Of a stretch of 64,000 bases of DNA, positions 8,220 to 59,629 are shown one piece after another. The notes beneath the pieces are model-generated. The model was given only the letters and a program-made list of their open reading frames with translations, did no database searches and was not told the origin of the DNA. The DNA comes from Chiloscyllium plagiosum (Eukaryota), in contig NC_057719.1 of assembly GCF_004010195.1 (NCBI RefSeq), positions 51,776,920-51,840,919 of the forward strand, given 5' to 3'. Numbering within the stretch: position 1 is the stretch's first letter; each line of letters begins with the position of its first letter. Position numbers and translations under genes: made by a program.

Positions 8220-9794
8220 CAGCAAGGCGGCCTTTGTGTGGAGCCTCAGAAAATGGGGGAGATACTAAATGAATATTTTGCATCAGTATTTACTGTGGAA
8301 AAGGATATGGAAGATATAGACTGTAGGGAAATAGATGGTGACATCTTGCAAAATGTCCAGATTACAGAGGAGGAAGTGCTGGATGTCCTGAAATGGTTAA
8401 AGGTGGATAAATCCCCAGGACCTGATCAGGTGTACCAGAGAACTCTGTGGGTAGCTAGAGAAGTGATTGCTGGGCCCCTTGCTGAGATATTTGTATCATT
8501 GATAGTCTCAGGTGAGGTGCCGGAAGACNNNNNNNNNNNNNNNNNNNNNNNNNNNNNNNNNNNNNNNNNNNNNNNNNNNNNNNNNNNNNNNNNNNNNNNN
8601 NNNNNNNNNNNNNNNNNNNNNNNNNNNNNNNNNNNNNNNNNNNNNNNNNNNNNNNNNNNNNNNNNNNNNNNNNNNNNNNNNNNNNNNNNNNNNNNNNNNN
8701 NNNNNNNNNNNNNNNNNNNNNNNNNNNNNNNNNNNNNNNNNNNNNNNNNNNNNNNNNNNNNNNNNNNNNNNNNNNNNNNNNNNNNNNNNNNNNNNNNNNN
8801 NNNNNNNNNNNNNNNNNNNNNNNNNNNNNNNNNNNNNNNNNNNNNNNNNNNNNNNNNNNNNNNNNNNNNNNNNNNNNNNNNNNNNNNNNNNNNNNNNNNN
8901 NNNNNNNNNNNNNNNNNNNNNNNNNNNNNNNNNNNNNNNNNNNNNNNNNNNNNNNNNNNNNNNNNNNNNNNNNNNNNNNNNNNNNNNNNNNNNNNNNNNN
9001 NNNNNNNNNNNNNNNNNNNNNNNNNNNNNNNNNNNNNNNNNNNNNNNNNNNNNNNNNNNNNNNNNNNNNNNNNNNNNNNNNNNNNNNNNNNNNNNNNNNN
9101 NNNNNNNNNNNNNNNNNNNNNNNNNNNNNNNNNNNNNNNNNNNNNNNNNNNNNNNNNNNNNNNNNNNNNNNNNNNNNNNNNNNNNNNNNNNNNNNNNNNN
9201 NNNNNNNNNNNNNNNNNNNNNNNNNNNNNNNNNNNNNNNNNNNNNNNNNNNNNNNNNNNNNNNNNNNNNNNNNNNNNNNNNNNNNNNNNNNNNNNNNNNN
9301 NNNNNNNNNNNNNNNNNNNNNNNNNNNNNNNNNNNNNNNNNNNNNNNNNNNNNNNNNNNNNNNNNNNNNNNNNNNNNNNNNNNNNNNNNNNNNNNNNNNN
9401 NNNNNNNNNNNNNNNNNNNNNNNNNNNNNNNNNNNNNNNNNNNNNNNNNNNNNNNAATAGGCAAAGTCTTTTCCCTGGGGTCGGGGAGTCCAGAACTAGA
9501 GGGCATAGGTTTAGGGTGAGAGGGGAAAGATATAAAAGAGACCTCAGGGGCAACTTTTTCACGCAGAGGGTGGTACGTGTATGGAATAAGCTGCCACAGG
9601 ATGTGGTGGAGGCTGGTACAATTGCAACATTTAAGAGGCATTTGGATGTGTACATGAATAGCAAAGGTTTGGAAGGATATGGGCCGGGTGCTGGCAGGTG
9701 GGACTAGATTGGGTTGGGATATCTGGTCGGCATGGACGGGTTGGACCAAAGGGTCTGTTTCCATGCTGTACATCTCTATGACTCTATGACTCTA
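8220..9794 (+). mobile_element. CR1 LINE, 5'-truncated, spanning the gap
   Basis: ORF2 motifs LNEYFASVFT, KSPGPD, RTRGH and FFTQRVVRVWNKLP, with a (CTATGACT)n tail. Confidence 0.92.
8529..9455. other. Assembly gap (N run) inside a CR1 LINE
   Basis: Run of N flanked on both sides by CR1 ORF2 sequence. Confidence 0.99.
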
Positions 9795-24664: not shown

Positions 24665-25972
24665 CTAAAGGCTTGTATTTGCAGTCTCTGATTTGGGTAC
24701 GGCAGGCTCAGACACAGTATCTGGTTGTCCATCTCTGCAGAAGAGCACAGCTGGGTTTCTACATGCCCACATTGCAACATCTCCATTTGCAGGGCTGGAG
24801 GAAGACATCCTGCTGCCAGACCCTTGTCGACTGACATACTGATCCCTAATTCTGTCCACCCTACTCCTGGCCTCGTGGCTCTGACTGGACAGGTATGCAG
24901 CTATGTTTCTAGTCCTGTAGCCATCTTCTCTATTTCTGCCCAAGAGAATGGAGATATTGGGGTTCCTGGTAGCATAGATGAGTGGATTGAGAGCTCCATT
25001 GGCCCATGCTAGCAAAATGGCTACAGTATCCATGATGGGGGTGAAATGGAAGTTGCCCGTGGCAGTGATGATGCCCATGATACAATAGGGGCCCCAGCAA
25101 CAGATGATGAAAACAATCATGATCAATACAGTTGTAGCTGTCCTCATCTCACTGTAGAAACGCAGTAGGTGGGCGTAAGTGGTGACTGGGCGGACTCGGA
25201 TCTCTGACAGCCTGACTGTCTTACAGATGTTGTAGTGGCAGAAACACATCAGAGAGAAGGGTAGAAGATAGCAGATGACAATGAGGGTGATGCTGTAACT
25301 GGTGCCCATCCGGGAGTTGCCTGAGTGGAAGATGTACATGCAGTGGTAGAACCCCTTCTTGTGGACAACCAGTGGACCATTGGCTTGTGTCATGAGATAC
25401 CAGGGGAAAGAGAAAAGGACTGCAATCAACCAGACGGCAACTAGTAACTGGGTGGCCCTACGTCGCCCAATCTTCTCCTGGGGTTGCCTGACAATGGCAT
25501 AGTAACGATCGAAGGAGATGAGCGTCATGGTGAGGGTGGAGATTATCCCAAAGCAGGAGTTGAAGAAGCCATTAGCAATGCAGAAACGGTCACCAAAGAT
25601 CCAGACCCCTTCCTGGGTGAACAGCATGATGAAGGAGAAGGGCACACAGAGCAGGGCAGTGAGGAGGTCAGACAGGGATAGAGACAGGATAAAGGCATTG
25701 GTCACTGTCCTGAGCTGCCGGTGTTTGACGATCATCACTATGACAGCTGAATTGCCCAGACAGGAGAGCAGGAAGATGAGCAGGAGGATGAGAGCTTTGC
25801 AAGCCAAGGCCATGCCATGGAGCAGGGAGTTGGTGTCAGCCTGGTCTCTGGCCCAATCTTGCGGAGTGACCCTGGTTTGGTTGGCGATGATGGTGGTCAC
25901 AGTGTTGGAACTGTCTGTGCTGTTGGTCTCTGTGAGACTGTTGAACCGGGGAAGCTTGGTTGAAAGATCCAT
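24665..25972 (-). CDS. GPR135: G protein-coupled receptor 135 (orphan class A GPCR), single coding exon, 435 aa
   Basis: Uninterrupted ORF with 7 hydrophobic segments and GN (TM1), LSLSD (TM2), DRY (TM3), CWGP (TM6) and NPLIY (TM7). Contains the GPR135-typical [28 protein letters not shown] and [11 protein letters not shown] segments. First ATG is at 25972; the ORF-track start at 25987 is a GTG, and there is an in-frame TGA at 26006-26008. TAG stop at 24665-24667. Adjacent to L3HYPDH as in human. Confidence 0.95.
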
Positions 25973-39520: not shown

Positions 39521-39658
39521 CTCTACAGCTTTTGCTGTGAACAGCGAACTCGTTGGACCACTCTGAAATGTCCTCATTTGATTCAGGGGAATCAATCCTT
39601 TGTGGTACTGCAGTGCAATACGAGCAGTCACACCTGAGCCACAAGGACTTCTGTCAAC
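39521..39658 (-). CDS. L3HYPDH: L3HYPDH exon 4 (second catalytic residue, here Cys)
   Basis: Acceptor cttatAG. Encodes VDRSPCGSGVTARIALQYHKGLIPLNQMRTFQSGPTSSLFTAKAVE. Donor GTAATT. 138 nt. Confidence 0.95.
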
Positions 39659-40472: not shown

Positions 40473-40595
40473 CTGAGCATCTGCAAAAACACAGATATTT
40501 GCTGTTGGCTCTTCAGAAAATGCATCCTTTCCATCAGTTAATATAGTCCCATAGAGAAAAGCAAGGTCTTCACTGTCAGGATGGTGGAACTTAAC
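40473..40595 (-). CDS. L3HYPDH: L3HYPDH exon 3
   Basis: Acceptor ttttgtaacAG. Encodes VKFHHPDSEDLAFLYGTILTDGKDAFSEEPTANICVFADAQ. Donor GTAGGC. 123 nt. Not in the ORF track; translated by hand. Confidence 0.95.
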
Positions 40596-43797: not shown

Positions 43798-43967
43798 ATG
43801 TGTTTTCACAGTATTAGTGACAGATACTGCTGCATTTACAAGATCCTGGGTCTTGGAGGAACAAACATCTAAACCAAAACGATCTGCGCTCACAAATGCA
43901 TAAAAAGCACCTCCATATGCAATATCCACTGCAATCTTCCCAAATCCTTGTACATCAACAGTAACAT
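43798..43967 (-). CDS. L3HYPDH: L3HYPDH exon 2
   Basis: Acceptor tctctttcAG. Encodes (D)VTVDVQGFGKIAVDIAYGGAFYAFV...VKTH. Donor GTATGT. 170 nt, restores phase 0. Confidence 0.95.
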
Positions 43968-44534: not shown

Positions 44535-45015
44535 CTGTAGCGAATACGAATGCGGGGACGCTGTGGAAGCGGACCCTCCCGCTCTTGCCCTTGTCGTATT
44601 GCACGAAAGCCCGGACTAGGCCGCAAGGGCAGTGGATGTTGACCTGGGTTTCGGGGGAGCTGGGCTCTTTGATCAGGCCGTAGTCCAGGGCGAAGCGGCC
44701 GAGGGCGAGCACGGCGTGCCCGCACATGGTGCTGTAGCCCTGGTTGTGCATGAAGAGGACGCCGAGGTGAGCGTCCGGCCGCTCGGAGCCCACCAGCAGC
44801 GCGCCGTACATGTCCTTGTGGCCGCGGGGCTCGAACATCAGCCTCCGCCGCAGGCCGTCCAGCCGCTCCCGCACATAGCGCCGCTGGCTGAGGATGTCGC
44901 CCGCCGGCACCGGGGGGAAGCCGCCGGTGATGATCCGGAGCGGCTCACCGCCCGTGTGCATGTCCAGCACCGAGAGCACGGAGCCCGACCCCAGCGGCTG
45001 TCCCACTGGCTCCAT
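44535..45015 (-). CDS. L3HYPDH: L3HYPDH exon 1 (proline racemase family; trans-3-hydroxy-L-proline dehydratase orthologue)
   Basis: ATG at 45015. Encodes DMHTGGEPLRI, FEPRGHKDMYG and YSTMCGH (first catalytic Cys98, codon 44722-44724). Donor ACAG|GTGAG, phase 1, 481 nt. Confidence 0.96.
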
Positions 45016-45171
45016 CCCAACCCGGGGAGGACAGGGCAGGGGGCGGGGTCACAGCTAGCCCCACCCCAACAGGAAGTCAGGTGTCGATTAGCCCACAGCC
45101 GGAAGTGGATGGGCAACGGAGGCGGAAGTGTCGTCACATTGGGATGGAAGCGGCTGTTGTTGGAAATAAAT
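45016..45171. promoter_or_regulatory. Bidirectional promoter of L3HYPDH and JKAMP, within a CpG island (about 44480-45150)
   Basis: 156 nt between the divergent ATGs. GC box GGGGCGGGG at 45040-45048. Three ETS/GABP-type GGAAGT sites at 45070-45077, 45099-45107 and 45122-45130. CpG-rich compared with the rest of the window. Confidence 0.8.
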
Positions 45172-45175
45172 ATGG
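45172..45175 (+). CDS. JKAMP: JKAMP exon 1 coding part (ATG G)
   Basis: aaatATGG|GTAAG in the CpG island. The phase 1 donor matches the phase of exon 2 (G+AT = Asp). Confidence 0.75.
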
Positions 45176-45327
45176 GTAAGGGGTCTTGTCCTCCTCAGTA
45201 TTGTGTTTGGGTGGGGGTAAGGGGTCTCGTCCTCCTCAGTATTGTGTTTGGGTGGGGGTAAGGGGCCTCGTCCTCCTCAGTATTGTGTTTGGGTGGGGGT
45301 TAAGGGGCCTCGTCCTCCTCAGTATTG
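45174..45327 (+). repeat. 41-bp G-rich minisatellite, about 3.7 copies
   Basis: Unit GTAAGGGG(T/C)CT(T/C)GTCCTCCTCAGTATTGTGTTTGGGTGGGG starting at 45176, 45217, 45258 and about 45299. Confidence 0.95.
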
Positions 45328-45900
45328 CTCTTGGACCCTTCAGCAATGTATCAGAAAACACTAGGCTGTCTCTGTCGCCCAATGTAAACCAAACTATCCT
45401 CCCCCCCCCAACACATTTTCTTTTACTCAAGGGCGTGACTGATAACCAACTTAGAGCTTATAAAAATATTAATGTTACCTACTGGCTACTGGTCATACAA
45501 GGCCTTTAATGCATCTTTACCATGTATTTAGATAAAGGTATATCAATAAGTTGATTTCTTTGAATCTTTAAACACACCAAAGTAATTCTGTACCGCGTTG
45601 GTCTTAAAATTGAGCTATTTCTGTGCTGTTGGGAGCCACAACAAATCACTGCATATCTCCTCCATGACTCAGTTTTCAAAACTCTGTTGGAACCTTGTCA
45701 TAACTTTTGATTGTATGATTGTATGCGACTTTCTGTTAGCTTTGTTGAAAAGTCCATAGTGGAATAATGACTTTTAAAAAAATACATATTCTATTTTCCT
45801 GTTATTTTTGCTTTTATTTAGATACTAGTGATTCTATGATAGTTGTGAACTGAAGATAACTGCATTTATATGAATTTCTCCCAAACATTGCTCACACATA

Positions 45901-46153
45901 ATTAGATTAGATTACTTAGTGTGGAAACAAGCCCTTCGGCCCAACAAGTCCACACCGACCCGCTGAAGCGCAACCCACCCAGACCCATTCCCCTACATTT
46001 AGCTGACACTACGGGCAATCTAGCATAGCTAATTCACCTAACCTGCACATATTTGGACTGTGGGAGGAAACTAGAGCACCTGGAGGAAACCCATGCAGAA
46101 TGGGGAGAACATGCAAACTCCACACAGTCAGTCACCTGAGGTGGAAATTGAAC
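45901..46153 (-). mobile_element. HE1-type SINE, 5'-truncated
   Basis: (ATTAG)n tail and central domain on the reverse strand. Confidence 0.88.
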
Positions 46154-48943
46154 TTTGTGCATGTTCTGATTGGAAGCAAAGTGATTTAATTTATTAAGGC
46201 TGTTATATGATTTCAAATTGTTGTAAACAAATTAACTGATTCAGGAGATAAATGATCAGCTAATACGTGAGTATGATTTATGATGCCTTCTATTGTAATA
46301 TTGGCTGTAAGAACTGGCAGTATTTCGGCGATTACTCAAAAGTCATCAAAATTAACTAGCTCGTTGAAAAAGGCTTTAGACTTTAAATAGAATTCCAACT
46401 GCAGTCACATTAAATCTAATTAACTTATATCAATAATGGTTATTGAATAATTCTCCTTTGTAAGGACAACGTAACAGAACAGGCTACTATTTTGTAATAC
46501 CCATCAATGTCTGCTGTTCTCACGTATACATTCATTTAAATTGTTTAAGTTAATAAAGTTAGTGTTTCACTTTTTCCACCTCTATCAATCTGGCTTGGTA
46601 TGTTTGAACAATGACTCTTGTCCTCCTGAAACAGAGTTTGCAAAGTGGGAAGTACCACCAGTGAGTTTGGGTGGATGCATTGCGTTATGTACATTTTAGG
46701 CATACATGCAATAATTGGTGATGAAAGGGATTATATTAGGCCATGTAGCAGAAATGTTAATCAGTCTAATTACTTTATCCTAGGATCAAGGATCCTTGAA
46801 GCTTTCACAAATTGATCTTAACCTCTCAATGATTGGTAATACTTACTTGATATTCAGAATTGAATAGGCAGAATTGCCTCCAATCAAATGTTAGGAAGGG
46901 AGTAGTTATTACCTGAAGGTCTCATAATGTGCACAGTTTTTGACACCTTGGATTTTGAAGTTGAACCAGACAGCTGGCATCCTTGCTATCCCTGAGTGAG
47001 CATCCACATCCTCCCTGCATACTTCACTGACTAGTCTTTCTTCATAACATACCCTGTCTTTGACCCTGCATCACTACAGCTACTACTGAAACTCTCGTCC
47101 ATCACTTTTTAACTTCTGCATTCACAATGCAAATATCTTATGGCTAGTCTCCTACCTTGCATTCTTGTTAAACTTGCCTTCTTTTCCTAACTACCAAGTT
47201 CTGTACACAAGTTACCGCACTCCTTACTCATTGGCTTCTGATCCTACAGCATCTGTTGTAAATCTCAACTATTTTCAAATCTTCCTTGTTCTTACTCTCT
47301 AAACCTCTGTAACCTTATGCACCCCTTCAATCCTCTGCGGTCTGTGTACTCCAGTTCTGACTTGTATCCCATTCTTAATTTTCTTCTGTTGCCTAGGATC
47401 CAAGCATTGGCATTTTGGTGTAGCAGAGCATTGTGTGTGTACGTACACCAAATAGACTGCAGTAGTTCACAAAGTTAACTTGCTACAATTTTCTCAAGGG
47501 TAACTGAGAATGGGCAAAACGTTCTGGCCTATCTAGCAACTCTGTTTCTGAATGAATAAAATATTGTCTAAATGAACTTTTTCACTGCTTTCCCTCACTT
47601 TAAGATGCTAATTAAATCTTACCTTTTTTGATCACTTCTCTTAAATTCTCATTAGATAAATTAATCAGGAGGCATAGGCTACTTGGCCCCTTCTGTGCCT
47701 TTAAGTAAGATCATGAATTATCTCATTGTGGCCTTAACACCACTTTTTTGCCGACCTCCCATAACCCTTGAATCCCTTTGATACAATTTCATTGCAACTC
47801 AGCCTTGAATGTATTCAGTATTTGAGTCTCCAAAATAATTCCAAAGACTAAAACTGAGAGGAGAAATGCATCCTCATTTTTGTTTTAAACTGGAGACCCC
47901 TGATTTTTAAACTATGCTCCAAGTTTTAGATTTCCCACAGATAAAACATCCTCTATCCTCTCAGTATCTACACTAACAATCACAAAAACAAACTTACAAA
48001 TTTCAGTAAAATCACTTTGTCTTCTAAACTTCAACCTTTTCTTATAAGACACTCACTTCACCCCAGGATTCAGCATATTGAACCTTCTCTGAACTGCTAA
48101 TTACAGTCATGAGCCTGTAAAACTTCCCGTATGTCTCAATTTAACAACTTGTTTGATCATGTTCCTTTGTAGCACTTTACCATTAAACACAAGTTATTGC
48201 AGGTCTATCCATCTGAATAAGTAGCTAGAATTCAATCACACACTTGACTTCATTCATCTAAATGGAGATGATAATTTAATGGTTTTGGACTTGCCCAGAC
48301 CAAACATAACCAGACATGTTGAAATCTTGAGTAAACCATTCTTTTGGGGACAAGGAAAAGGCATCAGGCAAAGATGATGGGGAATGTAAATTCTCAAAAT
48401 ATAAATTCAGTGACTGGAAAACTCCTGTGTAGATTATAACCCATTCCAATCGGATCATGGAATGTCACACCGGGGGGCTGTCAAGCAACTTCAGGTAAGG
48501 ATAGAAGGGTTGTTGGACTCAATGCTAACTGTTTTCTCTCCACAGATTTTGCCAGACTTGCTAAGTTTCCCTAGCAATTTCTGGTTTGTTTATTTAAGGG
48601 ATTCCTGTGTTACGTTAACCTTGGTTTGACCAACTGAAGTGTGGAGGATAGGGTTTGAATCATTCAGGATTATAATAAATTGGCACTCACCTGGAATCAT
48701 AATGAATGTGGGAACCTTGCCTGTGGATCAGTGGTAACAATTATTAATATTGCTGCTCCTGTTCAACTTCTGATCAATGATGATCTATGTTAGAAGTCTC
48801 AATAAAGGTCAAGGAAAGGTGCATGAGTACTTTGAAATGGCTAATGCCTGCAAAATGTTAGCTACCATTTCCAAGTCCAAGCCTGAATTTTCAGTAGGTC
48901 CTAAAGCAGACTGGCATGGGATGCTTCAAGAATTTAATTAAAT

Positions 48944-49584
48944 TCAAAGTTTGGGAGAAGATTTGTAGCTCAGGTGCTCGTTGTTGTGGTTCTGTTCACC
49001 GAGCTGGGAATTTGTGTTGCAGACGTTTTGTCCCCTGTCTAGGTGACATCCTCAGTGCTTGGGAGCCTCCTGTGAAGCGCTTCTGTGATGTTTCCTCCGG
49101 CATTTGTAGTGGTTTGAATCTGCCGCTTCCGGTTGTCAGTTCCAGCTGTTCACTGCAGTGGTCAGGCCTCCTACACTCAAAGCGCTTGGAAGAATGAGAG
49201 GTTATACAATCATGGAGTAGTACAGGATAGCAAAAAGCCCTTCAGCCCACTGCATCCGTACCCATCAAACAACTATCTACATTAATCCAATTTCCTGACA
49301 CTAGGCCCATTGTCTTTAGATGGCTAAGGTGTTCCTACCTCAAAAGAGTAATCAGATTGAAACATACAAGATTGAAAAGGGGCTCAACACTGAAAGGTAA
49401 TCTCCCCCTGCCTGGGCATCCAGAACACAGGGCTACAGTCTCACAGGAAATAAATGACCACAACAAATGCCGGAGGAAAGATAACACAAGCGCTTCACAG
49501 GAGGCTCCCAAGCACTGAGGATGTCACCTAGACAGGGGACGAAACATCTGCAACACAAATTCCCAGCTCGGTGAACAGAACCAC
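48944..49584. mobile_element. Penelope-like element with inverted terminal repeats and two hammerhead cores
   Basis: About 48981-49110 is the reverse complement of about 49460-49586. A 13-bp direct repeat AATTTAATTAAAT lies at 48931-48943 and 49585-49597. Confidence 0.8.
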
Positions 49585-49942
49585 AATTTAATTAAATATT
49601 CTGGAAACCTCAGCAAACAACTCCAATCCTGATCTTTGATGAAGTAATTGTAGTTGCTTGGGCCACAAACACTTCCATTACAAACTTTTGGCAAGATTAC
49701 CATGACTGTGATGAAAGTTCTCTGACTCACAACTACCTTTTATTGTACGTGATGTGAATTTACCATTGGAATTATTTTCCACTTGGTTTTGTTAGGGTTC
49801 CATGATGTCATATTCTTCAATGCTTTGATATCTAGTTAGTTTTAAATGGTTTATAGTAATTATTATTCAAATATTTACATTATAATTGCATTAAAATTAG
49901 TTTAATGCTTGGGAAACTTGTTAAGAATGTTATTAATTTCAG

Positions 49943-50031
49943 ATGTTAATTTAATGTGCCCTGGATTATACTGTGGAAGGTCAACAATAGAAAACAGAAA
50001 TGACAGCCATCCACAGTTTGGAGAATGTGGG
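49943..50031 (+). CDS. JKAMP: JKAMP (JNK1/MAPK8-associated membrane protein) exon 2
   Basis: Acceptor aatttcAG. Encodes (D)VNLMCPGLYCGRSTIENRNDSHPQFGECG. Donor GTAAGT. 89 nt. Confidence 0.92.
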
Positions 50032-50229
50032 GTAAGTTTTGTATGTTTTTCATTTCTTGTGTAGAGTAAAACTGACAATGATTAAAGGCGCAATTAGCCC
50101 TTGGAGATCACAGGTTTACGCAAGTGGTTAGATGATAGCTGTTATTCAAGCAATTAAAAAAAATCCAGTATTTGTATATTCATTAATATTGAACAACTTT
50201 TGTGATTTATGTTTAGTATGTGAAACATA

Positions 50230-50388
50230 TACAGAGGAACCTTGATTATCTAAAGGATACAGGCGGGGAGTATTTTGTTTGGTTAATTGAATGCCAGATA
50301 AGTTTAGCCAAGTGTTGGGACCTTGCGATCTTGCTGGACAATCTGATATTCGGATAATCCAATGCCAGATAATCGCGGTTCCTCTGTA
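50230..50388. mobile_element. Tigger/pogo-like MITE
   Basis: TACAGAGGAACCTTGATTATCT and AGATAATCGCGGTTCCTCTGTA terminal inverted repeats with TA ends. Confidence 0.8.
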
Positions 50389-50468
50389 TTGATCATACAG
50401 TCAGGTCTGTATTTCATTCTAAATGTGTCTGGGTCTTCTATTTACAAATATGCTCATAGGACTCTAGA

Positions 50469-50680
50469 ATGATGTGGCAATGTCAGTGTTGGACTGGGGT
50501 GGACAAGGATATAAGTCACATGATACTAGATTATAGTCCAATAGGTTTATTTGAAATCACAAGCTTTCGGAGCACTGCTCTTTTGTCGGGTGAAGTCTAT
50601 GAAGCAGCACGCTCCGAAAAGCTTGTCATTTCAAATAAACCTGCTGGAATATAACATGGTGTTGTGTGACCTCTGACTAG
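50469..50680. mobile_element. Palindromic Penelope-like terminal fragment
   Basis: Back-to-back inverted copies of CCGAAAGCTTG...AAATAAACCT...TATAA. Confidence 0.7.
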
Positions 50681-51824
50681 CTCTCTGGAGGCAGTATTTT
50701 CTTAATTTTGCAATTAGCATTTGCAAGTTGGATTTATCAAAGTATAGAGCTAATGACTGCTATCTGTAAACTAAATTCAATATATGGTGCAGCAGCATTT
50801 GTTTTAATTATAGATAAAAATACTGAATAATTATTCATTTATTCACTGTTTAATCTTGTGTACTTGAAGGAGTGTATTTATATGTTCGAAGCAGACTTGT
50901 TGACTCCATAATTTCAATGAAAAATTATCATCCTGATGAGAGTCACTGAATAAACTGTCATTGATTTGCTTCTGGATTCAAGCTACAAGCATTAAGGTGC
51001 TGTGATTTTAGTTGAAATAGATTTGTAGTTTGAATTCCTAAAGAAATACAGGTTGGTTTTAGACATGCCACTCTCATCTTGATCTTATTTCCCAAATTGT
51101 ATGTTTTTCTCCTTCAAATCATCTAGCAAATCCTTCATTTTCTTGCATTTCAATTAAAACTAACTTAAATACACTTCTTTGAATGTAATCTTGTGCAGAA
51201 CTATTTTATACCTTCAGGTAGTCTACACTGGGTGAAAACAGCTGTTGGGTTCGTATGATGTTGAATGTGTTTTGGACTTCTATTGGCCAAATTGTAAAAA
51301 AGCAAACTTCTGAAATTGACAAAACTCTCAAAAAGCTAGACCGTGACATGAGAACTAAAACATAAGCACTTTAGAAGAATCTAGGAATGACGTAATTGGT
51401 AGAGCGAAGTCAAAATAGCTGAGTACCAAAGCTTTCTTTGTTTTGGCCAGGAACTGCTATTGAAATGTTTCCAAGCTGACTAGAGAGTTTCACCAAGGTA
51501 ATTAGAAATCTTGACGGTCTGACTTGACTAATGGGCTGAATGGTAAATAATATCTTTCGTAATTGGACAGTTCACATAATAGGTAATGATTGCATTAAAT
51601 CAGTTCCTTTTGATATGTAAAGAAAGATTCCTTGAGTACAGATTATTGTGGTGTTGCATTGACTGGCAATAGAGTACTTGATGCATGCTCAGGAGTACTA
51701 ATAATTCTGTTGTGCTTTGATATGATTACTTAGACGTTAGCACCATGCATGAAATCTTACTTGTATTAAAGAAAATATATCATCAAATTATTTCAGAAAT
51801 TGATTTTGAAGGGGTTAATGACTC

Positions 51825-53620
51825 AGAGTCACAGGGTTGTACAGCATGGAAACAGACTCTTCGGTCCAACTCATCCATGCTGACCAAATATCCTAACCTA
51901 ATCTAGTCCCACTTGCCAGCACTTGGCCCATATTCCTCTAAGCCCTTTCTATTCATATACACATCCAGATGCCTTTTAAATGTTGTAATTGTACCAGTCT
52001 CCACCACTTCCTCTGGCAGCTCATTCCATGCATGCACCACCCTCTGCGTGAAAAAGTTGCCCCTTAGGTCCTTTTTTTTAATATCTTTTCCCCTCTCACC
52101 CTAAACCTATGCCCTCTAGTTCTGGACTCCACCACCCCAGGGAAAAAGACCTTGTCTATTTATCCTATACATGCCCCTCATGATTTTCTAAACCTCTATA
52201 ATTTCATCCCTCAGCCTCCGGTGCTCCAGGGAAAACAGTCCCAGCTTATTCAGCCTCTTCCTATAACTTAAATTCTCCAACCCTGGTAACATCCTTGTAA
52301 ATCTTTTTTGAACCCTTTCAAGTTTCACAACATCCTTCCGATAGGAAGGAGATCAGAATTGCGTGCAATATTCCAACAGTGGCCTAACCAATGTCCTGTA
52401 CAGCTGCACCATGATCTCCCAACTCCTGTACTCAACACTCTGACTGGCACAGTGACTCAGTGGTTAGCACTGCTGCCTCACAGCACCAGGGTACCAGGTT
52501 CGATTCCAGCCTCAGGTGACTTCTGTGTGGAGTTTGCACGTTCTCCCTGTGTCTGCGTGGGTTTCCTCCAGGTGCTCCGGTTTCCTCCCACAGTCCAAAG
52601 ATGTGCAGATCTGGTGAATTGGCCATGCTAAATTGCCTCAGTGTTAGGTCAGTTAGTCAGAGGGAAGTGGGTCTGGGTGGGTTACTCTTCGGAGGGTCGG
52701 TGTGGACTGGTTGGGCCAAAGGGCCTGTATCCACACTGTAGGGAATCTAATCTAATATCAAATACAGCCTTCACTATCTTATCTACCTGCAACTCTACTT
52801 TCAAGGAACTATGAACCTGCACTCCAAGGTCTCTTTGTTCAGCAACACTCCCCAGGACCTTACCAAAGTATAAGTTCTGCTCTGATATGCTTTTCCAAAA
52901 TGTTTTTCCTTGCATTTATCTAGACTAAACTCCACCTACCACTCCTCAGCACATTGGCCCATCTGATCAAGATCCCATTGTACTCTGACGTAACTTTCTT
53001 CGCTGTCCATTACACCTCCAATTTGGGTGACACCTGCAAACTTACTAACTATACCCACTATGTTCACATCCAAATTATTTATATAAATGACGAAAAGCAG
53101 TGGACCCAGCACTGCTCCTTGTGCCCCATTACAGGTCACAGGCCTCCAGTCTGAAAAGCAACCCTCCACCACCACCCTCTATCTTCTACCTTTGAGCCAG
53201 TTCTGTATCCAATTGGCTATTTCTCCCTCTATTCCATGCGCTCTAACCTTGCTAACCAGTTTCCCACGAGGAATCTTGTCAAACACCTTACTGATCATGT
53301 CTGCTGCTCTCCCCTCATCAATCGTCTTTGTTACTTCAAAAACTTCAATGAGATTCACGAGACATGATTTCCCACGCACAGGGCATGCTGACTATTCCTA
53401 ATCAGTCATGCCTTTCCAAATAAATGTAAATCCTGTCCCTTAGGATTCCCTCCAACAACTAGCCCACCACTGATGTCAGGTTCACTGGTCTATAGATCTT
53501 TGGTTTTTCCTTACCACCTTTCTGAAATAGTGACACCATGTTAGCCAACCTCCAGTCTTCCGGTACCTCACCTGTGACTATCAATGATGCAAATATCTCA
53601 GCAAGAGGCCCAGCAATACT
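51825..53620 (-). mobile_element. CR1 LINE fragment in JKAMP intron 2
   Basis: Reverse-strand GKSCLVNLIEVFE, KVFDKIP and QGAVLGPLLFVIYINNLD. Confidence 0.9.
52446..52755 (+). mobile_element. HE1-type SINE nested in CR1
   Basis: Head, central domain and AATCTAATCT tail. Confidence 0.88.
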
Positions 53621-53776
53621 CCAAATTCGAACAGTTAGGAGCTAGTTTTAATAGAAATGGTTTTGCAAATATATTTCCATGAGTTTATTCTGGGAAAAAT
53701 GTGACACACAAACATTTAATGTAACTTGGTAATGAGAAGATTCTTTTTCATTTATCTTAAAACAATGGCTCTGTAG

Positions 53777-53931
53777 GTATGCCCAAGAGGGGAAAGAACA
53801 GATGAACTGAGGATTTGTCGAAAATGTGAGGATTCACCGGAACTCTACGACTGGTTGTACTTAGGCTTCATGGCAATGCTGCCTCTGATTTTGCATTGGT
53901 TCTTTATCGAATGGTATTCAGGGAAGAAAAG
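53777..53931 (+). CDS. JKAMP: JKAMP exon 3
   Basis: Acceptor ctgtAG. Encodes VCPRGERTDELRICRKCEDSPELYDWLYLGFMAMLPLILHWFFIEWYSGKK. Donor AG|GTTAGT. 155 nt. Confidence 0.95.
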
Positions 53932-54789
53932 GTTAGTGTTATTTCAGAACAATAAGTGTAAATGGTGGTGTTACTTGGTATTGACTTTTACATGTGGAAA
54001 TGTCACAGTAGGTTAAATGTTGAGTTTTCTCTGGTAGGAAATGAATTAGTAGAGACTGAGGATGTGAAAGTCATCTTTAGTTGCTGCAAAGAGTCCACGT
54101 GAAATGCAACTGAATAATCTTAGTTCTGTTTATAGTTAAGAAAATACACATTTTCTTGAAGTCCTTCATCTTGCACACACCAGGATAATTTGCAAGAAAC
54201 ACCAATGTAAAGGGTAAACAACATTTTATACTCTGAGGGTGCTAATCGATTAACAAGTGGATTTTAATGAGTAGAGGCATTGCCGTGCAGAATTATGTTA
54301 GAAGATGACTGATAGTTAACTTTCAAGCTTTGTTTAAATTTTAAATCATGCAGGTTAACTCTGGTTTAGATCTTGCTCTGAGAAATGAACCATAGATTAG
54401 TTTTCACTTGTTTTTGTTGCAGCAGCAGCCATATGTGTACCTGTTCTTTTTGTCTACAAAGAACAAGGTCCTGTGTATTAAGATATGCATTTTCCAAAAT
54501 GCACAAATGCACCCCATTGCAAGCTGACTAACAATGTTAAATTAGTTGTCATCTTAGCATATTCATCAAATGCTGTCCAAATGTTGATTCATATATCACA
54601 TTGGAGACTGTGATTTGAGTTCCTCAATCACTGGCAGCTTTTAAAAAGAAACCTGATGGTATATGGATGTTGATGGCTGGCCAGCATTTATTGCCTGTCC
54701 CTAGTTGCCCTTGAGAAGGTGGAGGTGAGCTGTTTTTTTTCAAATCGCCGCAGTCCAGGTGCTGTAGGTTGACCCATAGTGCCCTTAAG

Positions 54790-55610
54790 ACCCATTGAGT
54801 CTGCTCTGCCATTCCATCGTGGCTAATAATGCAATTCTCCTGTCTTTTCCCTGTAACCCTTGATTCCGCTACTAATCAAGAACCTATCCGTCTCGATCTT
54901 AAATGCATTCAATTACTTGCCACTACTTCCTTCTGTGGCGAGGAGTTCCACAAAGTAACCACCCATTGGCTGTAGAAATTCTTCCTCATCTCAGTTCTAA
55001 AGGGTTGTCCCTTCACTCTGAGACTGTGCTCTCGGGTCCTAGTCTTTTCAAGTAGAAACATATTCTCGACATCCACTCTATCCACGCCTCAGTGTTTTGT
55101 AAGTTTCAATGAGATCCTCCCTCCTCCTCCTAAGCACTATTGAGTACAGACCCAAAGTACTCAACCTGTCCTCCTATGACAAGCCCTTCATGCCCATAGT
55201 CATTTTTGTAAATGGGCGGCACAGTGGTTAGCACTGCTGCCTCACAGCGCCAGAGACCCGGGTTCAATTCCCATCTGTTCCTCTGTGTGGAGTTTGCACA
55301 TTCTCCCTGTGTCTGCGTGGGTTTCCTCCCGGTGCTCCGGTTTCCTCCCACAATCCAAAGATGTGCAGGTTAGGTGAGTTGGCCATGCTAAATTGCCCAT
55401 AGTGTTAGGTGAAGGGGTAAATGTAGGAGAATGGGTCTGGGTGGGTTGCACTTCGGCGGATCGGTGTGGACTTTTTGGGCCGAAGGGCCTGTTTCTACAC
55501 TGTAAGTAATCTAATCTAATCTGTCAGTAATCTAATCTAAACCTCCTCTGGACTTCTTCCAATGATGGCACATCTTCCTTAGATCGAGGGCCTAAAATTG
55601 CTCACAATCT
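54790..55610 (-). mobile_element. CR1 LINE 3' fragment
   Basis: Similar to 10283-10800 (reverse-strand MRKNFYSQWV). Confidence 0.8.
55214..55540 (+). mobile_element. HE1-type SINE nested in CR1
   Basis: Full head and a duplicated AATCT tail. Confidence 0.92.
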
Positions 55611-56449
55611 CACCACCTGTTCCTCTGTCAACATTTCTGTCTCTGACCTGCTTCACTGCTCCAAAGAAACTTTCTTTTCCCAGCCCTCCCTCTCTCTGAG
55701 CACAGACTCCAATTATTCCTCTGCACCTGGTTGTCAGCATAAATACTACCACTTTTCAGTTCATTTAAGTTCTAACGACAGGTCACTGGACTCAAAACAT
55801 TAACTCCTTTTCTTTCCTGTCCACAGATGCTGCCTGACCTGTTTCTTTAAGTTTCTGCTTTGTTTTTGTTTGTCAGTGGTTAATTGTTGGAATGGAAGTA
55901 GATTTACAGTAGAATTCTCAGATCAGTTTTAGAACCCTTGTTGACAAAACAGAAAAAGACCCTTTGGTTCATTTTAAGTGCTTGTCAAAAACAAACCACC
56001 TAACTATTTTAATCATGTTTTCCAGCAATAGCTGTCATATATAAATAACCTAGAACTTTGTGTACAGGGCACAATTTCAAAAGTTGGAAATATTATGAAC
56101 TATAAGAAGGATAGAGTCGAATTTGAGATGTATGTAAACAGATTGGTGGTACGGGCACTTGTCTCATTTTCCCTCTGATCCTTCTCTTGTTTTATGTTGG
56201 GTTGCTCCTATTGCATCTATTATTCCAAGATCTAGAACCACCTCAGTCACTGAAAATAGCTAATTTCTAATTGCTCATTTGCATTCCTTCGTAAGTTTAA
56301 GTTTCTTCGAATTTTCCTGAATCTAATCAGAGAAGCCTCTAATTTTGTCTTTTATTTGCATTTTGTTACACCTTGAAATAAAATCTGTTGTCATTATTTT
56401 AAAGATACAAAGTTCACCTTAATGAATCAGATTTTCTTTTTCCCTATAG

Positions 56450-56656
56450 TTCCAGTGCACTTTTTCAGCATGTGACAGCATTATTGGAATGTACTGTTGC
56501 AGCTATTGTTACGTTATTGGTGAATGATCCAATTGGGCGACTGAAAATCCGATCCTGCCGAGTGAAGATGCTGTCAGACTGGTATACAATGCTTTATAAT
56601 CCGAGTCCAGATTACATCAATACATTGCACTGTACACAGGAAGCTGTATTCCCTTT
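56450..56656 (+). CDS. JKAMP: JKAMP exon 4
   Basis: Acceptor tttccctatAG. Encodes (S)SSALFQHVTALLEC...SCRVKMLSDWYTMLYNPSPDYINTLHCTQEAVFP. Donor GTAAGT. 207 nt. Confidence 0.95.
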
Positions 56657-58824
56657 GTAAGTATATGATTTTCAATAAAGAGTAAAATTGATTTACTCAC
56701 TTAATAGTTGTTAATTTACAAATTGCCATATGTTTCAGACAAGTTAGACCTCCATCTGTATCGATTTTAAAAACCATAGTGGACTGATAATCTATAAATT
56801 GTGTTGAATTGTATCCAGATAGTCGGCATGAACTGGGACTTCACTTGACCACTGACCTGTGAGAGCTGTTATGTCCCATCTTTGAGCTAGGAGGGCTGGG
56901 TTCAAGCCCATCTGTTCCAGATGTGTGTATGCTATTTCTGAACAAGTTGATTTAAAAGTTTAATACTTTTGAGTACCCAACATGCAATCATGCCATAACA
57001 TAACCATACAGGTTGATTAAACAATGGCTCAGCTGGAAGTTGTGGGACCTAGTGGAATTTCGATCGTAGTAGACTCTGAAAGAATTGCCCAGAAAATTGA
57101 AGATTCCACTCGCGATTTCATTATGTTTTGTACTCAGCATAAGTATCCATTTTATTGGGAGGGATCTGATTAAATTAGTTAAGTAGTTATTCAGGCAAAA
57201 TTGATGATTAAATAGATGGTGAAACTCCTGAGGAATTATTCAACTGACTTCATGTGTAGCTCGCATACCCCCAAATACAAATCTCCCAGATCACTTATGT
57301 CCCCCAGACTGTGCCTTGACATCCTTTTACCCTCTCATCACTTCAGATCTGACACCATCTTTGGATCTACACCCAACTTCCCCTTGCTCCAGACCCACCA
57401 CCCAGCTCCCGTAGACTGGGTAAGTGTCCCTTCCTACTCTTTAACCCAACTGGCCTCCCCTCAAACACAGTTCCTCTTGACCTGACAATCTCTGTGCCCT
57501 GCGCCCCTACTGGATTTGATTTCTCACATCTATCCTGACCTTTCCTAAATACACCATCACTTGCCTTGCACAGGTGCACTACACGTCCTACCATCAGGCA
57601 ACCTGTCTTCCCCAGCACTCTAACCTCACACTTAACATATGTATTTATGTATAATAGCAGTTGTCAAAATGGGTCTCTGATTCTGAATCTTTTAAGTTTC
57701 AGAATCCTGCAACTGTCTGCTGAGAAAGGGGCCATTGATTGTCTTCTCCCTAAAGTTCACTACAAGAGAACTGTCTGAATGGAAGTCCAGTTCTGCACTT
57801 CTGAAGGAGTCTTGATTCAAATTTCTTCTGTCAGAACTATGGAGTTCTAATTTTGTTTTTTTTTGAAAAAGGGTACAGTGGCAATCTGCACAAGATTGCT
57901 AAACCTCAGAAAATCCTGCCCTGCTTTTATATGTAAAAAGGGATATTAAGATCTTGTAGAAGACGGTAGTGCCTGTGTGTCAGAAAGTCCAGATTCAAGT
58001 CGTACCCCAGGATTGATGGGTATAGCGCTGTCATAATACACTCAGGTTGACTGAAAAATAAACTATAAAAATAAATCACTTAGTAAAGTGGTTACCTGTT
58101 AAGCGAGCGACTGAGTTTCAGTACAGGTTAATCTTTGAACAGGTTGATGAAAAAACTGTCCAGATGTAAAACATTCTGGCACTTAAATCACTGTCTTGTT
58201 CCCAGTTGAGAAGGAGCTGTTTCACCAGACAATACGTTCCTTGGTTTCCACACCTTCCTTGGTAGTTCTTTTTCACATTAAATAAAAAGGCATTCACAGT
58301 GATTGTGTCCCTACCTCTAGACAAGGTGCCTGGGTTCAAGTCCTACCTGTTCCAGAGGTGTGTAATAATCTCTCTGTACAAGTTGATTAGAAAATATTTA
58401 TGAAGAGATATTCTCCTTTAATGGGTAGCTCTTTACTTGAAAAGTTAATTAATTCATTGTTTCAAAATATATTAAAATACTACTTATTAAATCTCTAGGG
58501 TGGCTGAGTTAGGAACTTGTAGTGTGAGCTCTATAAATAAATAAATGAGAATAAAGATAGTTCCTGTACTATGCTTCACCAACTGATTTCCTGAAATGGA
58601 ACAGTAAGTAATGTTTTTTCCACTTCTATTAACAAAGAAAAATGTACTGCTTATTTTTTGAGCATGTGTTATGCTTTTCACAAGCTGATCGTTAAAAGTA
58701 GCGAGGGAGCACACACCTTAAAATTGGAAACCAGTGTTTTGAAAAATGGGAATCTCAATTTCACTTCTGTTCTCTTCTATTGTTTGTTTTTAATGGTCAG
58801 TCTTTTTTTTTGTTTTGTTTTCAG

Positions 58825-59006
58825 ATATACTATTATCTTCATATACTATGCCTTTTGTCTGGTTTTTATGATGTTGCTTCGTCCACTCCTGGTTAAAAAG
58901 ATTGCCTGTGGTCTTGGAAAATCTGATCGATTTAAAAGCATTTATGCAGCCCTCTACTTTTTTCCAATTCTGACAGTACTTCAGGCAGTTGGTGGAGGCC
59001 TGCTTT
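58825..59006 (+). CDS. JKAMP: JKAMP exon 5 (gene continues beyond the window)
   Basis: Acceptor gttttcAG. Encodes (L)YTIIFIYYAFCLVFMMLLRPLLVKKIACGLGKSDRFKSIYAALYFFPILTVLQAVGGGLL. Donor GTAAGT. 182 nt. Confidence 0.95.
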
Positions 59007-59629
59007 GTAAGTACATTTTCATGTCTAAATGTTACCTTCAGATTTAGCTACTTCTCTCACAAGGTTTTGCCACAACCTATTTGACCCCAGCAATTGTCCA
59101 AACCAGCATAATTTAATTTTTAATACTTTTTAAGACATGTTTTGAGATTTACAGTATATAATTATCAGCATTAACATGTAAAGATTTGTTTGCTGTAATC
59201 AATTTTACTTTCATTACCAATTTCATATCACAAAAGACATTCTAAATGTCTATAACCAGAGTGTATTATTCCTTCTCACCTTTTACTGTTGCTTGGTATT
59301 CATTGTAAATAATTGTGCCATGATTTTCCTATGTTTGTTTTTCATATGTGGCACCATGCCCTGGTTATACTTTATTTCCTATTTATCTAAATGCAACTAG
59401 CATTTGTCAAGCAAGGATCTAACCCTGATGTCTTCATTTTTAGTGTCTATCTCTTGATTACATCATCTTTAATATGGGAATCAATGTCCAATTGTATGCT
59501 CGTTTGCTCACGTTTTCAGCACCTCATGTGATCCCTTGATTGTGTTGGTGCTGTCAATTGTCTTGTCCATCTAAAGGTCCAGCTTCTCCAAACTCAACAT
59601 CAGAAAGATTGAAGTCATTGTCATTAGTC

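Follow-up and report, generated by a model that had tools for sequence, protein, structure and literature searches.

The L3HYPDH locus

The window, a stretch of 64,000 nucleotides from Chiloscyllium plagiosum (contig NC_057719.1, positions 51,776,920 to 51,840,919), contains a single-copy L3HYPDH gene of five exons on the minus strand, with JKAMP positioned head-to-head upstream and a GPR135-like ORF downstream (Table 1), a neighbourhood that is presumably the human gene order. All four L3HYPDH introns are GT-AG, and the spliced frame of 1038 nt with a single terminal stop codes for a 345-aa product without differences from XP_043553720.1 (P0001) of the same species. The first-pass annotation of this DNA had reported VDRSPCGSG with a TGT codon for Cys264 in exon 4, YSTMCGH with Cys98 in exon 1, and an intact 345-aa frame; the five-exon model bears these out and supplies the strand, which had been omitted, as it is the reverse complement of 39626-39658 that reads GTT GAC AGA AGT CCT TGT GGC TCA GGT (VDRSPCGSG), with the Cys264 codon running from 39643 to 39641. 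The intact reading frame rules out a pseudogene, and a whole-genome search with L3HYPDH gave five matches, all of them exons of the window locus, which rules out a hidden Thr paralogue.

Table 1. Features of the L3HYPDH locus (positions are those of the window).
Feature	Position	Strand	Details
L3HYPDH exon 1	44535..45015	-	ATG at 45015; DMYG Tyr70; YSTMCGH; Cys129 = human Cys137
Catalytic Cys98 codon TGC (YSTMCGH)	44724-44722	-	exon 1
L3HYPDH exon 2	43798..43967	-	GGAFY, Tyr183
L3HYPDH exon 3	40473..40595	-	pocket Tyr232, Gly233, Cys252, Phe254
L3HYPDH exon 4	39521..39658	-	VDRSPCGSG
Cys264 codon TGT, position of human Thr273	39641..39643	-	exon 4
L3HYPDH exon 5, coding part to TAA	37743..37868	-	
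AATAAA candidates, L3HYPDH 3' side	37058 and 37013	-	
GPR135-like single-exon GPCR	24665..25972	-	ATG 25972; Pfam 7tm_1; top ESM Atlas matches named GPR135, 0.98
JKAMP	45172..59044	+	Pfam JAMP; later exons near 49957, 53855, 56487, 58877; range given without a mapped 3' end

A candidate first exon of JKAMP, which we infer to end ATGG/GTAAG at 45172, places the start of this gene about 155 bp from that of L3HYPDH. The interval (45015-45172) is CpG-rich and contains three GGAAGT motifs (45071, 45100 and 45123) that we take to be ETS-type, and it is likely a bidirectional promoter of the two genes. It is followed at 45174-45327 by a tandem repeat (3.7 copies, 97% matches) whose 41-bp unit starts with the putative JKAMP exon 1 donor, GGGTAAG. 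The window also includes an assembly gap at about 8530-9460 (927 N), lying within what appears to us to be a LINE reverse-transcriptase-like remnant.

Family membership and catalytic pocket

The shark protein matches Pfam Pro_racemase (PF05544) at 365 bits against a cut-off of 27, and its structure model (pLDDT 90.7) aligns in Foldseek with structures of the proline racemase superfamily at TM 0.87-0.93. The closest solved relative by both sequence and predicted structure is human L3HYPDH (7QPO; 67% identity, TM 0.87), and in a 71-row tree the shark protein groups with vertebrate L3HYPDH in a gnathostome clade with SH-aLRT 99. Tree, structure, single locus and synteny with the GPR135-like and JKAMP neighbours support its assignment as the true L3HYPDH orthologue, as the annotation had held. 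ESM Atlas matches gave the family name only, and the databases name all chondrichthyan L3HYPDH proteins dehydratases. The Cys/Thr catalytic pair is absent, with Cys98/Cys264 in its place, and the two-Cys motifs of proline racemases, MCGH and DRSPCGxG, are both present.

With proline racemase (EC 5.1.1.4; T. cruzi 1W61, A. sticklandii 7PB3) and T. litoralis ProR/HypE (6J7C) the shark enzyme has in common the fold, the MCGH and DRSPCG motifs and the Cys/Cys pair, and Phe254 matches the ProR Phe at site 5 (the Phe290 position). It differs from them in its 30-35% identity, its place in the dehydratase clade, Gly233 instead of Leu/Cys, and Tyr70 (in 21/21 aligned chondrichthyans) where they have Phe at R1 (Phe102 in T. 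cruzi, Phe62 in T. litoralis). Against the prokaryotic NCBIfam model for proline racemase, PRK13969, the shark protein scores 280 bits, below the cut-off of 556; as neither it nor the gibbon enzyme reaches any NCBIfam equivalog cut-off, this is a weak test. The fold and the Cys/Cys 1,1-proton-transfer pair are also those of 4-hydroxyproline 2-epimerase (EC 5.1.1.8), but identity to that enzyme is 26-29%, and its Ser/Val at R1 and His at R2 are absent, the shark having Tyr70 and Gly233 at these positions in the alignment to 6J7C.

The residues of human L3HYPDH involved in substrate binding and domain closure are named in the available text of the structure paper (PMC9309405). Using a gibbon L3HYPDH sequence to supply human-type numbering, the shark keeps the human residue at 10 of the 12 positions singled out as functional (human D74, Y76, M103, C104, C137, Y192, Y241, Q267, R270 and S275 are shark D68, Y70, M97, C98, C129, Y183, Y232, Q258, R261 and S266, respectively), the exceptions being Thr273, which is Cys264, and position 98. 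Only five alignment columns (17, 30, 40, 54 and 264) distinguish the 21 chondrichthyan sequences from the 147 of bony vertebrates, and 264 alone belongs to the pocket positions checked; no compensating pocket change accompanies Cys264 in this comparison, and none of the catalytic or substrate-binding positions checked varies among the 21 aligned chondrichthyan sequences. Because the named residues are unchanged except at Thr273 and position 98, shark L3HYPDH appears to be close to a natural human T273C. The human Thr to Cys mutant is reported second-hand to have T3LHyp epimerase activity (PMC3958920, PMC8142540), and according to both papers, likewise second-hand, it is the Cys/Thr residue that determines whether 3-hydroxyproline is dehydrated or epimerised. 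The orthologous shark enzyme, with the same pocket residues, Cys98 for human Cys104, and a natural Cys264 where the human enzyme has Thr273, is a natural counterpart of this laboratory mutant with its reported epimerase activity.

Distribution of the second catalytic cysteine

With cluster members counted, all 22 named chondrichthyan species, from sharks, rays and skates to chimaera (Callorhinchus), have the Cys/Cys pair, and the trait that the annotation had described for this shark is thus present but class-wide rather than particular to Chiloscyllium plagiosum. This distribution rules out a sequencing or assembly error as the source of Cys264, in agreement with the earlier argument. Five Logan skate-cluster proteins span the exon 3/4 junction and retain the Cys, and one of the five, of 343 aa on a 2,510-nt contig, implies a spliced transcript. 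In the first search, among the best 120 of 5953 matches, all 11 chondrichthyan entries are Cys/Cys, and the 109 non-chondrichthyan entries comprise 102 Thr, one Cys, one Ala and five unreadable. Other vertebrate-type entries (n=184, these being cluster representatives and isoforms rather than species) include 177 with Thr, one with Cys, one with Ala and five unreadable at the second site. Vertebrate classes are each near-fixed for their own residue, and Ser, a Thr/Cys intermediate, does not occur in the readable motifs of the sequences surveyed.

The sole non-chondrichthyan vertebrate-type Cys is in P0078, a single record of a 344-aa Logan protein of teleost-type L3HYPDH that groups among teleosts and has about 91% identity with P0049 and P0053; its sequence would fit a possible independent switch to Cys in a bony fish. 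One 90% cluster contains one Cys (P0201) and four Thr sequences (P0309, P0313, P0317 and P0319). Three Cys/Thr proteins placed among animals in the tree (P0153, P0154 and P0401) are 54-59% identical to the shark protein and are possibly prokaryotic, two of the cluster records being named 'proline racemase' by JGI/IMG.

Both residues are also found in invertebrates, with 10 Cys and 10 Thr among the 20 named rows used from a search whose query, limpet P0343, is itself Cys and hence gives a Cys-biased sample. The Cys rows are Patella (two), Lottia, Gigantopelta, Haliotis asinina, Solemya, Pinctada, Mizuhopecten, Holothuria and Lytechinus, and the Thr rows are three hemichordates, Anneissia, Amphiura, Acanthaster, Diadema, Haliotis cracherodii, Lingula and Owenia. 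Three mollusc copies of the family, P0404 (Patella vulgata), P0409 (Gigantopelta aegis) and P0179 (Mya arenaria, partial), have Phe at R1 together with Cys at the second site, which is the proline racemase signature, and these are candidate animal-encoded proline racemases. The second repeat of P0403 (Solemya velum) also has Phe at R1.

Direction of the change

The annotation had left it undecided whether Cys is ancestral or a reversion, and had proposed an alignment across these groups. In the 71-row tree, inferred without column 264 by a quick search, the chondrichthyan clade (SH-aLRT 99) is nested in the gnathostomes (SH-aLRT 99), and the second-site state, scored for 70 rows, flips at least 13 times. 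The flips recur in molluscs and echinoderms, even between close pairs such as Haliotis asinina (Cys) and H. cracherodii (Thr), or Lytechinus and Diadema. A simple two-state model, run with four long or partial rows dropped and the bony vertebrates forced into one clade, assigns Thr to the gnathostome node with P = 0.995 and Cys to the chondrichthyan node with P = 0.955. Cys264 is therefore probably a Thr to Cys reversion on the chondrichthyan stem, as judged from a sampling without cyclostomes, amphioxus and tunicates, for which no orthologues were among the best 120 matches listed per search.

Bacterial enzymes with a similar pocket

The shark pocket is matched by that of the Bacillus cereus-group BC0905 type, which has Tyr at R1, Gly at site 4, Phe at site 5 and Cys/Cys; the match is one of the pocket only, at 38% identity, and the shark protein lies outside that clade. 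The corresponding shark residues are Tyr70, Tyr-Gly (232-233), Phe254 and the Cys98/Cys264 pair, and the differences are that the BC0905-type enzymes are bacterial, are encoded together with a reductase of the OCD family in one operon, and carry Thr at the position of shark Cys252. One BC0905-type member carries, we believe, the database label 'bifunctional dehydratase/2-epimerase'. The Tyr/Cys/Cys pocket is found in all 80 Bacillales loci related to P0220 that were taken (the best 80 of 251), and in 56 of these 80 a gene of the ornithine cyclodeaminase/mu-crystallin family (OCD, the Pyr2C-reductase family) lies within 4 kb.

A Bacilli cluster (cluster 5) next to OCD reductases is reported to dehydrate t3Hyp (t3HypD) in the available text of Zhao et al. 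2014 (PMC4113996). The Bc0905 primers from that study map on the Tyr/Cys/Cys gene, just before DRSPC, and the Bc0906 primers on the neighbouring gene, each in 18 of the 80 loci with at most two mismatches. By this mapping, and by elimination, since the other B. cereus family member there is a 4-Hyp epimerase, we place the BC0905 type in the t3HypD cluster. The same source notes that dehydration requires one base only, and PA1255, which has a Ser/Cys pair, carries out both epimerisation and dehydration of t3Hyp according to the PMC5144071 supplement. The dehydration attributed to the BC0905 type and the dual activity of PA1255 indicate that a second Cys permits epimerisation without ruling out dehydration.

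Pathway genes in the shark genome

Genes that could act around L3HYPDH are known in the shark genome from exon matches rather than full gene models, and include CRYM (five exon fragments), a DAO-like gene (seven exon fragments at G000:C25:12.685-12.704 Mb, with no stops in the matched parts), two DDO-like copies, PRODH, and a last exon that we take by its motif to be PRODH2-like. The last exons of the DDO-like copies are tandem and near-identical (G000:C3:113.43-113.48 Mb; HNYGHGGTG and HNYGHGVAG), and are either a real duplication or an assembly duplicate. No co-loss of pathway genes with the Cys switch is seen among these, as CRYM, DAO, PRODH and PRODH2-like exons are all present, and the genomic context thus does not favour the different route for 3-hydroxyproline that the annotation had suggested. 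The kept CRYM, like the lack of a second L3HYPDH copy, fits continued dehydration, but it is a slight indication given that CRYM also acts on other substrates. No report of DAO activity on cis-3-hydroxy-D-proline was found in the available portions of the literature that names this compound.

Predicted activity

The reading that we prefer, at a probability of about one half, is that this intact, single-copy L3HYPDH with a second Cys is a bifunctional trans-3-hydroxy-L-proline 2-epimerase/dehydratase, as its residues and the bacterial analogues would suggest. The substrate would be held in the unchanged pocket (Tyr70, Tyr183, Tyr232 and Phe254), and Cys98 would take its alpha-proton to leave a carbanion. 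This could either expel the 3-OH to give Pyr2C, which CRYM would then reduce to L-proline, or be reprotonated on the opposite face by Cys264 to give cis-3-hydroxy-D-proline. As epimerisation is reversible and dehydration irreversible, the net flux would still run to Pyr2C alongside a pool of the D-epimer, which the enzyme would be able to salvage. We infer both activities, their ratio and the flux for the shark enzyme, and a measurable 3-Hyp epimerase activity in vitro, an activity for which there is no dedicated family, is quite probable. Against the bifunctional reading are the distance of the Bacillus enzymes (just 38% identical, with Thr at the Cys252 position) and the placing of BC0905 in the t3HypD cluster by elimination; in addition, bony vertebrates keep Thr almost without exception, which suggests that Thr and Cys are not equivalent, and the human-mutant activity is known second-hand in the available parts of PMC3958920 and PMC8142540.

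The annotation had predicted an epimerase rather than a dehydratase; the epimerase part is likely in view of the human mutant, albeit second-hand, whereas 'rather than dehydratase' does not stand beside the BC0905 type. That the enzyme is mainly or only a 3-hydroxyproline 2-epimerase, converting collagen trans-3-Hyp to cis-3-hydroxy-D-proline for removal by DAO or excretion, is accordingly unlikely in our estimate. Fixation of the Cys in the sharks, rays and chimaera sampled speaks for it, as do, weakly, the DAO-like exon fragments, DAO being general in vertebrates. The Cys/Cys rule and the human mutant point the same way (PMC3958920 and PMC8142540, as available), but the Tyr/Cys/Cys Bacillus enzymes adjoin Pyr2C reductases and their cluster dehydrates t3Hyp (PMC4113996, in the text available), and a pure epimerase would leave the shark without another family member for dehydration. 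At the opposite extreme, and just as improbable, the protein would in effect be a plain dehydratase that tolerates Cys264 in place of Thr and epimerises at most as a trace side reaction; the recurrent flips of the site, close pairs included, the lack of any other pocket change together with Cys264 and the Bacillus precedent are all consistent with this, but the human mutant, 67% identical overall and with a nearly identical pocket, is reported to epimerise (available part of PMC3958920), and the absence of a Ser intermediate in readable motifs and the near-fixation within vertebrate classes also speak against it.

A proline racemase, or a broad Pro/Hyp racemase like T. litoralis ProR that yields free D-proline, is very unlikely. 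In its favour are MCGH and DRSPCG, the placing of Phe254 at site 5 (ProR Phe290), and an archaeal enzyme of the Cys/Cys kind whose substrates include Pro, 3-Hyp and 4-Hyp. When R1 is Tyr or His, however, Cys/Cys proteins had neither ProR nor 4-HypE activity in the available text of PMC1964878, where 3-Hyp is unmentioned, and the shark residue at R1 is Tyr70; this argues against the suggestion 'or proline racemase' and agrees with the accompanying argument that Tyr in DMYG disfavours proline as substrate. The PRK13969 score is also far below its cut-off, with the reservation already given for that model. Least probable of all, to the point of being nearly negligible, is a protein that hardly acts as a catalyst and is retained for a non-enzymatic function or one under redox control. 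Human L3HYPDH is described in the available literature as an interferon-stimulated antiviral gene, and its regulatory Cys104-Cys137 disulphide has its pair kept in the shark as Cys98/Cys129, but the invariance of the catalytic and substrate-binding positions checked in 21/21 aligned chondrichthyans and the 81% identity between bamboo shark and Callorhinchus L3HYPDH argue against such a role.

A broader proposal, which we regard as doubtful, is that in chondrichthyans, and independently in many molluscs and echinoderms, L3HYPDH has turned back into a cofactor-free epimerase/racemase mainly making D-imino acids (cis-3-hydroxy-D-proline, and D-proline in the mollusc copies with Phe at R1).

Significance

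The Cys/Cys L3HYPDH is a class-wide variant of a known enzyme and is apparently unreported, no report of the shark variant having been found in the literature searched, most subscription journals lying outside it. In an entire class of vertebrates the one L3HYPDH copy has the 'epimerase' residue, yet the databases label these proteins dehydratases. Shark L3HYPDH is a natural test case for the single-residue epimerase/dehydratase rule, for which the recurrent Thr/Cys flips in marine invertebrates are natural replicates. The best-characterised mammalian racemase is the PLP-dependent serine racemase, and D-proline is attributed to gut bacteria, according to the available text of a review (PMC12247034). 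If epimerisation by the bifunctional enzyme is substantial, the shark gene would be a vertebrate-encoded cofactor-free amino-acid epimerase; if the D-imino-acid proposal is true, it would be a vertebrate-encoded, PLP-independent source of a D-amino acid, and collagen 3-hydroxyproline would have a second route, switched by one codon.
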